Source: a virus. Taken from it: a stretch of 64,000 bases of DNA. The notes under the pieces are model-generated. The model had not been told where the DNA came from, made no database searches, and saw only the letters and a program-made list of their open reading frames with translations. This document shows positions 9,022-25,486 of the stretch, in pieces. Location: the UHGV virus genome UHGV-0300374; one strand, 5' to 3'. Position numbers and translations under genes: made by a program. The stretch's first letter is position 1, and each line of letters begins with the position of its first letter.

Positions 9022-9255
9022 CTAGTCTTTTTCAATGATAATTTCATACTGACCATCAACACTATCGAAATAGATTCCGTCGTCATCTTCTGTCTTAAAG
9101 TAACACTGAATATCATCACTTGCGGGGTAGTCTTGCCTTGCTATCTGGCAAACTTGAATAGCATTTTCTTTACTTCCTGTAAACTCTTCAAGCCCTTTAA
9201 AATCGCATGAATGACCGTTACAAATAGAAAGGATGAGGTAAACGGTTGTAAGCAT
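9022..9255 (-). CDS. hypothetical small protein with hydrophobic N-terminus
   Basis: 77-aa ORF; N-terminus MLTTVYLILSICNG; preceded by a different stem-loop (agccccttacaggggct) and RBS GGGAGG. Confidence 0.35.
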   Translation of the reverse strand: MLTTVYLILSICNGHSCDFKGLEEFTGSKENAIQVCQIARQDYPASDDIQCYFKTEDDDGIYFDSVDGQYEIIIEKD

Positions 9256-9321
9256 GATTTAAGCCTCCCAAAAGCCCCTGTAAGGGGCTAAATAGTGTTT
9301 ATAAGGTGATTGCATAGGTTT

Positions 9322-9864
9322 TTAGAAAAAGCTCTTTAAATCCTCTTCTGTGATGTTTCCTGTTAGTGTATCCATGATGTCACAAAAAACCTGAATACTG
9401 TCCGACTGTTGAACACTTTTAGCAAGAAGCTCCAGAGACTCATCAAGATAATTTAAATTTGGGTTATCCAATGAAGGAAGACAAAAAGGTGAAAACATGG
9501 CATTAAATTCAGTGATGTAAACCTTTTTAATCCAGCTTATATCAAAATACTCTGTAAAACTTGCCACGCTCGACATATTATCACAAGAATAATCATCATT
9601 CAACTCATCCTCTGGAATATCAAGTTCCAAGATAACAATATTTTGAGTTTTCATCTGAAAAGCTGCCGTTATAGTGGCATTGCCAAGAGCTTGCTGGATA
9701 CCTTCAGAGATTATTTCTTCCTCATCGTCGCCATAGATTTTATTTTCTGGATACACGTAAAAATTGCCGTCCATATCCGAACAATTCCATGCGCCTGATG
9801 GTTTATCACCGTTATTAATCAGGTTGAGGAAATTTTCTTGAGTAGTACCGTGAAAACATTTCAT
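9322..9864 (-). CDS. hypothetical acidic protein; possible minimal ADP-ribosyltransferase-like fold (weak)
   Basis: 180-aa ORF; N-terminal CFHGTTQENFLNLINNG then GNFYVYPENKIYGDDEEE, reminiscent of H-G-[ST] and aromatic motifs of H-Y-[ED] ADP-ribosyltransferases; unverified. Confidence 0.45.
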   Translation of the reverse strand: MKCFHGTTQENFLNLINNGDKPSGAWNCSDMDGNFYVYPENKIYGDDEEEIISEGIQQALGNATITAAFQMKTQNIVILELDIPEDELNDDYSCDNMSSVASFTEYFDISWIKKVYITEFNAMFSPFCLPSLDNPNLNYLDESLELLAKSVQQSDSIQVFCDIMDTLTGNITEEDLKSFF

Positions 9865-9949
9865 TTTTGAATCTCCAGTTTAGGATTTAGTGGTAAAGCT
9901 CTTTATCTGGGGCTTAAGATATCAACTTTTAAGCCCCTTGTAAAGTACT

Positions 9950-10153: not shown

Positions 10154-10238
10154 TTTAGAATCTCCAGTTTAGGATTTAGTGGTAAAGCTCTTTATCTGGG
10201 GCTTAAGATATCAACTTTTAAGCCCCTTGTAAAGTACT

Positions 10239-12850: not shown

Positions 12851-12935
12851 TTTAGAATCTCCAGTTTAGGATTTAGTGGTAAAGCTCTTTATCTGGGGCT
12901 TAAGATATCAACTTTTAAGCCCCCTGTAAAGTACT

Positions 12936-14219: not shown

Positions 14220-15005
14220 TTAGTTCTTTGCGTCTAAGAAGGTAACTTCTGGTGAAGAGAAGATTGCCTCGATATCCTCATCAGTTCTTGCATAGATATA
14301 AGCTTCTGCATCACTACCAAATGTTACAGCAATTCTGTGATTGCTCTTTGACAGGTGGGTAACTAGAGCGTTACTTAGAGACATCTTTTCAACCGGAGGG
14401 TTACTTTGATGTATCTTACCTTTTCTTCGTCTGAAGAGGGTAACTGCATTATCCGTGAACACTGCTACACCTGCAAAGTATTCTGGTTCACAGTAGTTCT
14501 TCCAACCTGAGAGTAACTTGTGGTACATCTCTCCTTCATAGACATATAGATAAACATCTACACTCTTCATAACCTGATTGATGATAACTGTGACGGCTTG
14601 AGAGTCTAGTCCACCGATACCTGCACCAATCATAGGTAACCCAACTTTCTTCAACTGATTGACTTCACAGTATCTGTTAAGTTGTTTCAAAGATGACTCT
14701 AAAGCACTGTATCGGGCATCTTTACCAGTCTTAAGCTGAGTGTAAAGGTTAGCTATACGGCCTTGTTCTAAACGTGCTACAGAGAAATTACCCAGTAAAT
14801 TTTCACAGGGTTTGTGACCTATACCACCTGCATAGAGGTAAACTTCTGTATCGGTCTCATATGCTTTTGGGTAAAGTTTAGAAATCTTGTCAGCGATACC
14901 TGCACCCATTAAATTCATACAGTTGCAACCGTGACCAATAATATCAAACTTACCTTTATCAAATGCTGAGAAGATATCCCCATTGATGATTTTTACAATA
15001 CCCAT
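14220..15005 (-). CDS. macro-domain protein (TARG1/OARD1/DarG-like, ADP-ribose binding or hydrolase) with uncharacterised C-terminal domain of about 110 aa
   Basis: IINGDIF...DIIGHGCNCMNLMGAGIADKI and VGLPMIGAGIGGLD resemble the two glycine-rich ADP-ribose-binding loops of TARG1-type macrodomains. Confidence 0.6.
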   Translation of the reverse strand: MGIVKIINGDIFSAFDKGKFDIIGHGCNCMNLMGAGIADKISKLYPKAYETDTEVYLYAGGIGHKPCENLLGNFSVARLEQGRIANLYTQLKTGKDARYSALESSLKQLNRYCEVNQLKKVGLPMIGAGIGGLDSQAVTVIINQVMKSVDVYLYVYEGEMYHKLLSGWKNYCEPEYFAGVAVFTDNAVTLFRRRKGKIHQSNPPVEKMSLSNALVTHLSKSNHRIAVTFGSDAEAYIYARTDEDIEAIFSSPEVTFLDAKN

Positions 15006-17033: not shown

Positions 17034-17729
17034 TCAATGTTTAACTAACATGGTTTTGATGTGTGGAAGGATTCTGTTCACCTTCTGCACATTCTTCTCT
17101 GTGTCTTCTATAAAACATACTATATTAAAGTAAGGCAGAATGCAAGACTGAATCATCCTCACTTTCAAACTTTCTGCACTTATAGAGTTAGTCCCAAAAC
17201 CACGCATAAAAAGCATGTAGTCATGCTCTGTGTTATGCCTTAAAAACATCTCAGTAGGTATTCTCTGAGATTCACCTCTCGCTGTCAAGAGTCCAACAGC
17301 AGCATGATTAGCAATTGCATCAATGATATTGAAAACATACGTTGGTTTTGCTCTTACAGAGTCAAGAAGATTAGTGTACTGCGAGAATGAACCGTCAGTC
17401 AATTCCGTTGAACAATCTTCGTGATTAAAATTTGTAAGAACACCATCAATATCTGCTAAGATGAGATTCCCTTTTTCTACAAGGTCTTTATTGACTATGA
17501 CTAAGCTATCACGACTTACACCTATAGTTTGTCCAGTCTCTTTATCTACAACATTCACAATTGGCTCTGATGTGTGAAACTCTTCTAGTGAACATACAAC
17601 TTCTCTTGCAGTGTCTTCAAAATCCCTACACTGTTCTGGAGTCCATACACAGGAATCAAGACCTAACTCATAAGGATGTAAGTCATAAGCGTGACACAGT
17701 ACTTCATCAGACTTTTTTAATTTTTTCAT
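17034..17729 (-). CDS. HAD-superfamily hydrolase, possibly NT5C-like 5'(3')-deoxyribonucleotidase, with N-terminal extension
   Basis: LILADIDGVLTNF (HAD motif I, DxDGV), GLLTARGES (motif II), CFIEDTEKN (motif IV-like). Confidence 0.5.
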   Translation of the reverse strand: MKKLKKSDEVLCHAYDLHPYELGLDSCVWTPEQCRDFEDTAREVVCSLEEFHTSEPIVNVVDKETGQTIGVSRDSLVIVNKDLVEKGNLILADIDGVLTNFNHEDCSTELTDGSFSQYTNLLDSVRAKPTYVFNIIDAIANHAAVGLLTARGESQRIPTEMFLRHNTEHDYMLFMRGFGTNSISAESLKVRMIQSCILPYFNIVCFIEDTEKNVQKVNRILPHIKTMLVKH

Positions 17730-18255
17730 GGTTTACCTTAGAAATGTTTGTTGCAAATTCACATTGAGCAATAACTTTCATGTTGTTATAGACATCTTGA
17801 GAATATTTCTTAGCTTTAGGGATTCTGTACGAATACCCAGCATTATATGATGCTAAAACTTTTTGTAAAGTCTTCTTTGACTTTGGCTGACCATGCACCT
17901 TTGTCCAAAACTCAAGCTCTTTGTGAGTTTCCTTCGCAGCATAATCAAAGTCTCTTAAGAGTTTCTTTTTAGCCACATTAGGGCTAATTTTGTTACGCTT
18001 TACAACAGTCTTCAAGTGATTCTGGAAAATACCATAATCATGTGTCTTTTTATTCTCTACCTTCAGACCTAACTCTGACTCTTGTAAGGCTATAGCAGCT
18101 AGAGTGATACCCCAACCTTTACCCATGTTATTCTCACCATACTGGTAAGCTTTTAACATGTTTACTTTTTGGCTAATTGATAGCTCTGGGCAGTTAACTG
18201 CATAAGATAAGTGTGCTGTAAACATTAAGCACAAACCTAGAATCAATTTCTTCAT
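17707..18255 (-). CDS. secreted lytic transglycosylase (SLT domain) with signal peptide
   Basis: N-terminal MKKLILGLCLMFTAHLSYA; SLT motifs ALQESELG (catalytic E-S), YGIFQN, LASYNAGYSY. Confidence 0.6.
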   Translation of the reverse strand: MKKLILGLCLMFTAHLSYAVNCPELSISQKVNMLKAYQYGENNMGKGWGITLAAIALQESELGLKVENKKTHDYGIFQNHLKTVVKRNKISPNVAKKKLLRDFDYAAKETHKELEFWTKVHGQPKSKKTLQKVLASYNAGYSYRIPKAKKYSQDVYNNMKVIAQCEFATNISKVNHEKIKKV

Positions 18256-22487: not shown

Positions 22488-24269
22488 TTAAAGCTGCTTG
22501 TCAATATTATTTCGAATATCACCAAGAGTTGTGTAGCCGAACTGCTCAGAGTCACTAAAGACTAGACGTAAAGCACAAGCTGGGTGTTCAAGTGCATCTG
22601 CAAAGCTCTGGAACCCATAGCCATCTACAGCTTTCAGCTTATCACCATCCCACATAGGCGCTACACCACCAAAGGCAGATTTCTTAACACCACTATCTGT
22701 TTTAGGGTCTTTTGCAAGCATAATCTCTTTACCACCAATGCTTGCAAGAGTTGCTTTGACAGCAAATGCAAAGGTGTCACGAGTCATGTACTGGTAAGTG
22801 TAAGAGCCTACACCAAACACTACGTTAGAGCTTGCAAAACCCATTTCATACAGACGCTTCAGGATTTCGTTTGCACGTTCCAGCGTGATAGAGTCGCCAT
22901 AAATAAGTCCAATATGCTCATCCAGTACTTTAAAGCCTTTAGAGTTAATAGTTCCCCCAAAGATGTTGTACAGTGTCTTAATAGCTCCATCAATCTCAGC
23001 TACAGGACGTGTTACAACGTTTGCAGAACCAACCATATAAGCATTTTTCAACATCACTGTATCAGCAACTTCAAAGTCTTCTCTGTCAACAACCATCTCG
23101 TAGCCTTCTGACAGTAGCCATCCAGCAATACCATAGTTGATGTTCTCAAGCTTCATGTTCAGAACAGCATTCAACATTGTGTCACTGGCTTCCAGCTTGC
23201 TTAGGTGCTCGTAATAAGCCTTCTTAGCACATTCTAAGTGGATTGCTTTATAACCTGTGACAATATGTACAGGGTCTCCAGAGTCAGGACGAATTACCAG
23301 TTTGCCATCACGTTCCATAATTTCTTTACGGAGTGCTGGTAAAATTTCTGACACAGTTCTCCAGAAGTTATAAGTGTCTGAAACAACACTTGCAATACCA
23401 GTTGGGTAAGTTTCTGTTAAGAAACGACGGAAGGTTTGTAACTCACCTTTAAAGCGTCTTTCTTCTTCAATCAACTCATTACCACCTTCCCAAGCAATGT
23501 TTGCACACATTACAGAGTGTTCAGTGGCTGGTACAGAACTACCAATATCAGAGATTGGGTAAGACTGTCCATAGATGCGTTTAGCCGTGTATACAGCAGG
23601 GAAGCTATCGGTTCCTTTAAAGCTGGTTAAGTGACCTACAGCGTTAAATGCGTCATCAGTAAAGCCGGACATACCACGCATAGCAAAGTCGTGACACTGA
23701 TAAGGTAAATGTAGGTCGTTGTCACAAGTAAGGTCAGCCCACTTCTTACATATACGTTTGTAGTGCAATGCAATAGTCGCAATGGTGCAAGCCTTCCAAA
23801 TCTCAGCAGAGAAAGCATCTTCCAGATAACCTGCTACCCAATGGAAGCCTGAAACAGTGTTCTGGAAGACAATCATTGGGACACGCATCGGGACAACTGT
23901 ACCTTCTTCTACAGCATATACTTCAACTGGTAGATAACCTAAATCGTGGAGTGCTTCCCAATGCTCTCGACCGATAGCATCTTTGCCCAGAACACCATTC
24001 ATGACTTCTAAGATTTCGTCAATTGCTTCTTTTTTGTCACGTTCAAAGAACGTAGCATTCCAGTGGTCTATCAAGTAATCTTTAACAAAACGTTGAATAC
24101 CAAAAGCGACTACACCATCAATTGCTAATGGACTGTTAAACCATTTGTTGCTACGTGGTGTCAGGTTGAACATCAAATATTCTGTTGCACTAGGGTACTG
24201 GTAAACATGACCAGATTTGTAAGCATCTGCGTTTAAACCTGCTGGTACTGCATAAAGTGATTTAGTCAT
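22488..24269 (-). CDS. nicotinamide phosphoribosyltransferase family protein (Nampt/NadV-like; candidate Namat of NAD+ reconstitution pathway 1)
   Basis: 593 aa; N-terminus ...NADAYKSGHVYQYPSATEYLMFNLTPRS typical of the NAMPT family; adjacent to a Prs-like gene. Confidence 0.85.
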   Translation of the reverse strand: MTKSLYAVPAGLNADAYKSGHVYQYPSATEYLMFNLTPRSNKWFNSPLAIDGVVAFGIQRFVKDYLIDHWNATFFERDKKEAIDEILEVMNGVLGKDAIGREHWEALHDLGYLPVEVYAVEEGTVVPMRVPMIVFQNTVSGFHWVAGYLEDAFSAEIWKACTIATIALHYKRICKKWADLTCDNDLHLPYQCHDFAMRGMSGFTDDAFNAVGHLTSFKGTDSFPAVYTAKRIYGQSYPISDIGSSVPATEHSVMCANIAWEGGNELIEEERRFKGELQTFRRFLTETYPTGIASVVSDTYNFWRTVSEILPALRKEIMERDGKLVIRPDSGDPVHIVTGYKAIHLECAKKAYYEHLSKLEASDTMLNAVLNMKLENINYGIAGWLLSEGYEMVVDREDFEVADTVMLKNAYMVGSANVVTRPVAEIDGAIKTLYNIFGGTINSKGFKVLDEHIGLIYGDSITLERANEILKRLYEMGFASSNVVFGVGSYTYQYMTRDTFAFAVKATLASIGGKEIMLAKDPKTDSGVKKSAFGGVAPMWDGDKLKAVDGYGFQSFADALEHPACALRLVFSDSEQFGYTTLGDIRNNIDKQL

Positions 24270-24314
24270 CTTTTAATCTCTCTCAAAATGGGGCTTTCAA
24301 GCCCCTATAAACTT

Positions 24315-25196
24315 TCAATCAAGGTTTGCTACAGTAACTTGACCATAATGTGTTAAGCCACGGTCTTTAGCTTCGCCTAAAGAGTTTGTAGTGTAAATAT
24401 GGTCGATACCATTGTCAAGAAGGTTTTCAACACCTTTAGAGAAGATACCATGTGTTACATAAAGCTCAACACGTTTTGCACCTGCTTCACGAAGATGTTT
24501 AGCTGCTTCTATGAAGGTTCGACCACCATCACAGATATCATCAAGAATCATAACAGTTTTATCTGTCAAATCAACATCATCAAGGATTCGCATACCAGTA
24601 ATTTCTCCAGTCTTAAGATTTCGCACCTTAGACATTGTGATATATGGTTTATCCACCTCTTTAGCAGTCTCTGCAATCTTCTTAGAAGCACCTGCATCTG
24701 GGGCTACTAAGTAATCAACCAGTGGGTCATTTGCATAGTGGACTGCAATTTCCTTTTGAGGAATACTCTGGAAGCAGTTAAACAGGTTATCTGGTGCATA
24801 ACTGTGAGGGTCAACTGCACAGACTGCACCAAACCCCATTGCATTGACCTGTTTAGCAAAAACCTTTAAAGCTGCTGCATCACCTTTAAACATGTGACGG
24901 TCGTATCGTGCATTTGGCAAGTAGTAAAAAATGACAGTCTTCAGGGCATAATCATGAGGAACTAAATCGTCAATTGCTTCTTTAGCCAGTGCCACAGCAA
25001 ACAGTGTGTCTTTGTCATAACCCTTTACAATCATAACCACATTGTTAATAGATGATGCTGCATAAGCAGTAAAATCAACAAGCTCTTGTGAAAAGTGGCC
25101 ACCAATCTCACCAGAAGGGAATTGGATGATGTTAAACTCTTCTTCATGAGTTCCTTTAGTCGGTGAATGAATTGTGACACGGATAGATGTTTTCAT
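24315..25196 (-). CDS. ribose-phosphate pyrophosphokinase family protein (Prs-like; candidate Adps of NAD+ reconstitution pathway 1)
   Basis: FPSGEIGG near the N-terminus and PRTase loop VMILDDICDGGRT; start trimmed to ATG 25196 (RBS AGAGGAAA), the track start being a TTG. Confidence 0.8.
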   Translation of the reverse strand: MKTSIRVTIHSPTKGTHEEEFNIIQFPSGEIGGHFSQELVDFTAYAASSINNVVMIVKGYDKDTLFAVALAKEAIDDLVPHDYALKTVIFYYLPNARYDRHMFKGDAAALKVFAKQVNAMGFGAVCAVDPHSYAPDNLFNCFQSIPQKEIAVHYANDPLVDYLVAPDAGASKKIAETAKEVDKPYITMSKVRNLKTGEITGMRILDDVDLTDKTVMILDDICDGGRTFIEAAKHLREAGAKRVELYVTHGIFSKGVENLLDNGIDHIYTTNSLGEAKDRGLTHYGQVTVANLD

Positions 25197-25207
25197 AGTT
25201 TCCTCTC

Positions 25208-25486
25208 TCAATCAAAAGTTACGTTTGTTACTGCCATTGCAGATTTGCATTTTACAGGGTCTACAACGTGGTAAAGTACACTACAGTTACCTGTGCTGTC
25301 TGGTACAGGCTTTACCCATTGCTGCTTTATAGTTGGCTCTCCTAAGTCTTTGTAAGAACCATCTGTAAAGTTGTTTACCATCTCAAGTGCAATTGGTTCT
25401 GGAACATGACCACGTATCATGTACATCTCACAACCATTACCTCCTTCACTGACTAATGGTAAAATCTCCCACTTTTCTTTAGCCAT
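25208..25486 (-). CDS. hypothetical protein
   Basis: 92-aa ORF directly upstream of the Prs-like gene. Confidence 0.4.
   Translation of the reverse strand: MAKEKWEILPLVSEGGNGCEMYMIRGHVPEPIALEMVNNFTDGSYKDLGEPTIKQQWVKPVPDSTGNCSVLYHVVDPVKCKSAMAVTNVTFD

Follow-up and report, generated by a model that had tools for sequence, protein, structure and literature searches.

The minus-strand open reading frame (ORF) at 9322..9864 of the window (the whole 64,000-nucleotide stretch of virus genome UHGV-0300374 analyzed here) is a real, selected gene and not a chance ORF. Judged from its predicted structure and its sequence, the protein is probably a stand-alone, phage-restricted and minimal member of the Arr/Tpt1-like ADP-ribosyltransferase (ART) superfamily, with a putative H-Y-D pocket and candidate transferase activity. 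The near-invariant residues of its family fall on elements of the ART NAD+ site, namely H5-G6-T7, a loop carrying W26 and S29, Y36, and D91. On the basis of the model and the alignments, we classify the family as a new, unannotated one within the known ART superfamily and as a candidate enzyme.

Known phage ARTs act on host transcription and translation, which T4 Alt/Mod reprogram, or switch off immunity, as AcrIF11 does. The Felix O1 genome paper remarked that T4-like modifiers of RNA polymerase are apparently absent from that phage. FelixO1-like phages and Pakpunaviruses are used in typing, biocontrol and clinical trials, and a function has been assigned to only a minority of their small non-structural genes. 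Placing the dark-matter family phrog_3303 in the ART superfamily, with a putative active site of H5, Y36 and D91, gives a testable enzyme hypothesis and a candidate host-modifying or counter-defence enzyme in therapy phages. With its strong acidity, lack of arginine and unique acceptor loop, such an H-Y-D family could also reveal a new target or acceptor chemistry. In the literature searched, nothing linked phrog_3303, Felixounavirus/Felix O1 or Pakpunavirus to ADP-ribosylation. The main text of a survey of viral ARTs (PMC9503650) covers N4-like, PARP, ORF28, p0068-like, Alt/VIP2, Mod, HYD2 and KptA enzymes and makes no mention of FelixO1-like phages or Pakpunaviruses; an earlier, purely computational listing is possible.

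The Gene and Its Expression Signals

The window belongs to a Felixounavirus (FelixO1-like myovirus): the 2.5 kb around the gene match many Felixounavirus genomes of Escherichia, Salmonella and Shigella phages at 91-95% identity, and the protein is 100% identical to one of Felixounavirus LF82P2. The ORF has an ATG start and encodes 180 residues beginning MKCFHGTTQENFLNLINNG, with the opening stretch MKCFHGTTQENFLNLINNGDKPSGAWNCSDMDGNFYVYPENKIYGDDEEE, followed by GNFYVYPENKIYGDDEEE and later by IVILELDIPEDELNDDYSCDNM; the acidic 180-residue ORF and the three strings quoted for it in a preliminary description of this DNA are all present, on the minus strand. The protein has a pI of 4.05, with 32 Asp/Glu and 8 Lys residues and no Arg, and the whole family is acidic (median pI 4.2).

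A Shine-Dalgarno sequence, GGAG, can be read 8 nt before the ATG (9873..9876, minus). Farther out, 45 nt upstream of the ATG, a consensus scan found a promoter-like 36-nt element (TTTACA-17-TG-TATCTT; 9909..9944, minus) with the sequence TTTACAAGGGGCTTAAAAGTTGATATCTTAAGCCCC, which combines σ70-like −35 and extended −10 hexamers with a 9-bp inverted repeat, GGGGCTTAA/TTAAGCCCC. An identical copy lies at 10198-10233 and one with a single mismatch at 12895-12930, all on the minus strand and each of the three upstream of a small ORF (chance expectation, 0). Possibly the phage uses this element as a repeated promoter into which a hairpin or operator is built, and, from its position and likeness to a promoter, the gene would be transcribed from a σ70-like promoter of its own. 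On the other side, between the stop codon and the Shine-Dalgarno sequence of the next gene, the stem-loop AGCCCCTTACAGGGGCT followed by TTT (9273..9289, minus) was read from the sequence as a short GC hairpin, possibly a weak terminator-like element; the terminator scan did not call it because its T-run is short.

A Phage Protein Family without Annotation

Homologues were found by tblastn in 371 of 50,697 phage records, at identities down to about 30%. The carriers are Felixounavirus and other Ounavirinae, Erwinia Kolesnikvirus, Vibrio phages of ~136-141 kb and Pseudomonas Pakpunavirus, and every annotated homologue record listed calls the protein "hypothetical" or "phage protein". An exhaustive profile HMM search of 1.84 billion cluster representatives, metagenomes included, returned 277 clusters (50% identity) at E<=1e-3 and 116 at E<=1e-10. 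In these clusters, the members are nearly all stand-alone proteins of 170-200 residues without fused domains, and of 228 family sequences retrieved, 204 have the HGT motif within their N-terminal 45 residues. The family corresponds to phrog_3303, "unknown function" (E 5.9e-91). A search with the single motif pattern DD[YWF]SC[DEP]NM found no cellular homologue in 185,579 bacterial and archaeal species genomes.

Searches of Pfam, NCBIfam, PADLOC and the PDB (phmmer/hmmsearch), made with the single protein, 54 diverse members and their profile, assigned no family. Sub-threshold matches to PDDEXK_4, DMP12, UPF0223 and VapC6 were rejected as noise.

The Predicted Fold

The protein very probably has an ADP-ribosyltransferase fold, as judged from an AlphaFold2 model built on an input alignment of 54 sequences (27-94% identity). 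The model reaches a mean pLDDT of 85.3 and a pTM of 0.82, and pLDDT falls below 50 in residues 27-31 only. It runs β(2-8), α(9-16), a long loop, β(35-39), α(48-70), β(74-82), a loop, β(102-104) and β(112-120), and ends in C-terminal helices; the split β-sheet of the ART fold is present. Foldseek matches in the PDB are weak (best E 0.047), and the top ones are ARTs too. The structure prediction that the preliminary description had proposed as a check gave a confident model of the ART fold.

The model also bears on the idea that the protein is a PD-(D/E)XK nuclease, for which the Pfam PDDEXK_4 match of one query speaks (E 0.044, 14.2 bits). That score lies below the cutoff of 22.3 bits, only 2 of the 54 members match PDDEXK_4 at all, and the fold search, with no nuclease among the best structural matches, refutes the idea, the probability of which we regard as negligible.

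A Predicted Conserved Pocket at the ART NAD+ Site

Conservation was scored over 184 divergent family members. The codons for H5-G6-T7-T8 (9841..9852, minus) specify the predicted NAD+-binding "HGT" motif at the end of strand β1, where H5 is conserved in 98%, G6 in 96%, T7 in 91% and T8 in 78% of the members. H5 and G6 lie on the strand formed by residues 2-8 of the model, which places a His-Gly at the β1 end as the ART fold requires, and H5-G6-T7 aligns with the "HGT" of Tpt1 (P 6.4e-5) and with H19-G20-T21 of Arr. W26-N-C-S29 (9778..9789, minus) sits in the flexible, low-pLDDT loop between helix 1 and strand 2, with W26 conserved in 99% and S29 in 97%. By analogy, the model predicts that this loop takes the position of the flexible NAD+-binding loop of Arr, a long loop with a conserved SN[YF] motif that contributes to the NAD+ site (PMC6092378). 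Y36 (9757..9759, minus), the predicted nicotinamide-site tyrosine, is 99% conserved, lies on strand β2 (residues 35-39) and pairs with ARR-2 Y52, which is Arr-ms Y49. After β3 comes the signature loop of the family, D90-D91-Y-S93-C94-D-N96-M97 (9574..9597, minus), in which D91 (99%) precedes a family-specific S-C-x-N-M segment (S93 99%, C94 89%, N96 90%, M97 96%). D91 pairs with ARR-2 D91, equivalent to the catalytic D84 of Arr-ms, in an alignment that is marginal (P about 0.02), and is predicted from sequence to be the candidate catalytic acid.

H5, Y36 and D91 stand opposite ARR-2 H22, Y52 and D91 (Arr-ms H19, Y49 and D84) in the same order and register, in one hhalign alignment that is statistically weak. 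For these comparisons ARR-2 was represented by 9iba_A, checked against the PDB, Arr-ms numbering (H19, Y49, D84) was taken from a printed alignment, and the printed alignments of 7kw8 and 6e3a supplied the NAD+ lobes of Tpt1. In Arr, the catalytic residues were established by mutation as the HGT ending β1 (H19-G20-T21), Y49 and D84 (PMC6092378). The preliminary description had pointed to the same kind of motifs in the phage protein, an H-G-T, an aromatic tyrosine and a late acidic residue; the first two hold at 91-99% in the 184 members, and its acid has to be moved, since the acidic run containing E80 and D82 (ILELDIPEDE) is not conserved in the family and the conserved acid is D91, nine residues on.

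This pattern weighs against the protein being an acidic protein or DNA mimic, that is, a charge-based stoichiometric inhibitor of a DNA-binding host protein in which the ART likeness is a scaffold only. Such a role would suit the low pI, the 32 Asp/Glu residues, the missing arginine and the acidity of the family, and two family members give sub-threshold matches to the DMP12 "DNA-mimic protein" (E 0.026). However, the invariant residues are not an array of acids: they comprise H, G, T, W, S, Y, D, S, C, N and M, and they occupy ART pocket positions. Members differ in the length and sequence of the acidic linker (residues about 43-55), and the DMP12 matches stay below threshold. We consider a mimic improbable.

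For the preferred reading, an active transferase, a sequence of steps can be proposed. The protein would bind NAD+ through H5 and Y36, which would hold its ribose and nicotinamide, and the W26/S29 loop would close over the dinucleotide. D91 would then promote transfer of ADP-ribose to an acceptor held in the conserved D-x-S-C-x-N-M loop. The target may be a host component conserved among Gammaproteobacteria, modified in the course of host takeover or counter-defence, and the acceptor would have to be common to enterobacteria, Erwinia, Vibrio and Pseudomonas. Because the pI is about 4, the protein lacks arginine and the family is acidic, a protein (probably basic) or small-molecule acceptor is favored over DNA or RNA: a basic host protein or a small molecule appears more plausible, and a DarT-like or Tpt1-like nucleic acid acceptor unlikely.

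Comparison with Known ADP-Ribosyltransferases

Among known enzymes, the protein would work most like Arr, with which it has the minimal architecture and, by prediction, the triad in common, and looks most like the NAD+ lobe of Tpt1. The putative H-Y-D triad corresponds to that of Arr-ms (2HW2) and ARR-2 (9IBA), the Arr proteins of PF12120, with the profile match being marginal (P about 0.02). PF12120 itself matches neither the window protein nor any of the 54 members at E<=1, whereas true Arr proteins do match it. The phage protein is ~35 residues longer than Arr, carries a 3-residue S-C-x insertion in the substrate loop as well as the acidic linker, exceeds Arr by far in acidity, and occurs in phages only. 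The D-P-N-[VL] motif of Arr becomes D-Y-S-C-x-N-M here, and nothing points to rifamycin as a substrate.

The likeness to Tpt1/KptA raises the idea of an RNA 2′-phosphotransferase that works in tRNA repair with the phage polynucleotide kinase. The match is confined to the NAD+ lobe, there is no Tpt1 Pfam match, and the strongly acidic surface, acidic where Tpt1 is basic, is unsuited to RNA. The HGT motif starts at residue 5, and the N-terminal RNA-binding lobe is therefore absent. The catalytic tetrad of Tpt1 is Arg-His-Arg-Arg, which cannot be present in a protein without arginine. Conversely, where the phage protein has its Tyr and Asp, the three aligned Tpt1 sequences read V-H-L-S on that strand, and we know of no acid in Tpt1 equivalent to D91. 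The sequence thus largely refutes this reading, which we regard as highly improbable.

The R-S-E signature of ART toxins (Arg on β1, S-T-S on β2 and (Q/E)-x-E, as in cholera, pertussis and LT toxins, Alt and Mod) was not found in the protein. T4 Alt, ModA and ModB, which belong to the R-S-E clade, and AcrIF11 are nevertheless functional precedents, being phage-encoded, NAD+-dependent modifiers of host or defence proteins. DarT differs as well: neither Pfam nor PADLOC gives a DarT match, and the acidic surface is unsuited to ssDNA. The family is not a member of PF12120, Tpt1, DarT or the R-S-E toxins.

Another very small, phage-encoded, Arr-like candidate is a T-even mini-ART that overlaps dmd and starts F-Y-H-G-S. 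In Escherichia phage mogra (Mosigvirus; locus L009, 1678-1995), this is a 105-aa basic ORF, MKTIDCKAEFKIFYHGSSS...RVFFTED...RLYRVISP, with a 4-nt overlap at the start codon of dmd, an arrangement like that of toxin-antitoxin genes; the corresponding position in T4 (locus L007) is without such an ORF. This mini-ART with its dmd probably represents the "p0068-like ART + Dmd" system of Escherichia, Shigella and Salmonella phages predicted by Iyer et al. (2022) (PMC9503650). The mini-ART differs from the window protein in being basic, in being paired with the antitoxin-like Dmd and in lacking the D-x-S-C-x-N-M block. Compared through this candidate ORF next to dmd, an identity of the phrog_3303 family with the p0068 + Dmd ART was rejected: the hhalign alignment of the two (E 0.059) covers the HG motif only, Dmd is confined to T4-like phages with genomes of about 165-175 kb, and no Dmd-like neighbor lies beside the window gene.

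Genomic Context and the NAD+ Genes

Small genes form a long minus-strand block around the gene, with rIIA/B and the nucleotide-metabolism genes encoded on that strand too, and the ORFs flanking the gene in the window have no Pfam domains. In Bas63/JohannRWettstein, a phage of E. coli K-12 whose protein (Bas63_0107, QXV81798) is 96.7% identical, small hypothetical genes surround the homologue, and the same strand carries, ~4-15 kb on, a "putative phosphatase", spanins, polynucleotide kinase, rIIB/rIIA, nicotinamide phosphoribosyltransferase and PRPP synthetase. Outside the related Ounavirinae, carriers have no neighbor in common within ±3.5 kb, and no partner or immunity gene is common to the Ounavirinae, Vibrio, Pakpunavirus and marine loci over that distance. 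The gene has therefore been retained amid turnover, without a cognate partner, and the label "accessory region" given to it earlier is doubtful because it is kept across Ounavirinae, Pakpunavirus and the 136-kb Vibrio phages while its neighbors turn over. Directly downstream (9022-9255, minus) is a 77-aa ORF, acidic and Cys-rich, that has a weak homologue in Erwinia Kolesnikvirus (30% identity, E 7e-7); this homologue sits at a different relative position, so the 77-aa ORF and the ART-like gene do not form a fixed pair.

A macro-domain protein of the DarG or T4 Tk.4-AdfM type is encoded at 14220..15005 (minus; Pfam Macro E 2e-7, above cutoff). It matches NCBIfam antitoxin_DarG (1.1e-12) and PADLOC DarG (4e-13) and is homologous to T4 Tk.4, as tk.4 annotations among the tblastn matches indicate. 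T4 Tk.4 is AdfM, an anti-DarTG2 factor according to a 2025 preprint (10.1101/2025.11.20.689424). Farther along on the same strand, an NAD+ salvage/reconstitution module spans 22488..25211 (minus) and comprises a nicotinamide phosphoribosyltransferase (Nampt; 22488-24269, minus; 98.7% identical to the annotated Bas63 gene) and a ribose-phosphate pyrophosphokinase (24315-25211, minus; 77% identical to the annotated Bas63 gene).

The preliminary description had joined the ORF with the macro-domain protein and the NAD+ genes into a set of ADP-ribose writer, eraser and supply. This set was not established, the macro gene being neither specific nor adjacent to the ART-like gene. It occurs in 2855 phage records, ~8 times as many as the ART-like gene, including T4-like phages without an ART-like gene. 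In the window, 4.4 kb with several ORFs and another copy of the promoter-like element separate the two, and the distance exceeds 10 kb in a Vibrio phage and in JG004, unlike the arrangement in DarTG. A distance of 7.5 kb separates the macro gene from Nampt in the window. In Vibrio phage 184E37-2 (locus L011, 33815-36756), Nampt and PRPP synthetase flank the macro gene, and the ART-like gene is 12 kb away; in Pakpunavirus JG004 (locus L013, 7013-10533) the macro, Nampt-family and PRPP-synthetase-family genes cluster at 7-10.5 kb with the ART-like gene (gp163, ADF58283) at 87.9 kb; the Pakpunavirus module is NAD+ reconstitution pathway 1 plus the macro protein (PMC12846349). The macro gene, in both of these distant relatives in or beside the NAD+ genes yet far from the ART-like gene, therefore tracks the NAD+ module, which suggests that its product works with NAD+ reconstitution. 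By sequence, the macro protein resembles an orphan counter-defence enzyme of the DarG/AdfM type tied to that module. The ADP-ribosyltransferase reading as first put forward is supported in part: the fold and the H and Y motifs stand, with D91 as the candidate in place of the proposed acid.

All carrier lineages checked have a Nampt-family module, which is present in only 2025 of 50,697 phage records (4%), and this co-occurrence fits an NAD+-related role of the ART-like gene. FelixO1-like phages and Pakpunaviruses are distant relatives ("Felixounavirinae"), and Nampt is typical of the group (PMC5587285). We have down-weighted the co-occurrence because of this relationship, as it may simply be inherited.

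The context has to be weighed in three further readings. The protein could be a non-catalytic sponge or decoy, the ART-fold pocket of which sequesters NAD+, ADP-ribose or an immune signal (e.g., Thoeris-type gcADPR) or mimics a host ART. Pocket residues would be conserved in a binder as well; the protein is small, stand-alone, phage-only and encoded in a block of small genes, resembling phage sponges, of which Tad1 and Tad2 are known examples; no partner or immunity gene lies near; and the co-occurring NAD+-reconstitution and macro genes counter NAD+/ADPr-based immunity. The retained set nevertheless aligns with the catalytic-type H-Y-D of Arr, including the acid needed for Arr catalysis, and to our knowledge ART folds are not established as pure sponges, so that we consider a sponge unlikely, with some weight left to it.

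Still less weight falls on an NAD+ glycohydrolase, or generator of soluble ADP-ribose derivatives, that does not modify macromolecules. Its nearest structural and motif relatives, Tpt1 and Arr, belong to a clade that the main text of the ART survey associates with RNA repair, small-molecule modification and soluble ADPr derivatives (PMC9503650), and the acidic surface disfavors nucleic acid targets. Against this, the strongly conserved D-x-S-C-x-N-M loop suggests a specific acceptor, and a free-running NADase is unlikely because the phage invests in NAD+ reconstitution (Nampt and PRPP synthetase). We give a similarly small chance, by analogy with Arr, to a counter-defence enzyme that would ADP-ribosylate a hydroxyl of a diffusible host molecule and so inactivate it. 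It would target, for example, an antiphage metabolite or an immune second messenger derived from a nucleotide or from ADP-ribose, with NAD+ drawn from the phage's own module. This proposal draws on the closest motif-level relative being a modifier of a small molecule, on the acidic and Arg-free protein, on the acceptor loop conserved across phages of diverse hosts, and on the NAD+-rebuilding carrier genomes (lineages checked). If true, it would be a mode of immune-signal neutralization so far undescribed.

Three further features of the region were observed. The macro protein (261 aa; "putative phosphatase" in Bas63) has its domain only in about residues 25-160, followed by a C-terminal extension of ~100 aa without an assigned domain. 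Two overlapping ORFs lie at 17034-17729 and 17707-18255 (both minus). The one that is 99% identical to the Bas63 "polynucleotide kinase" has no Pfam match at E<=0.01, and the ORF that overlaps it downstream gives a sub-threshold match to SLT transglycosylase (E 8e-4).
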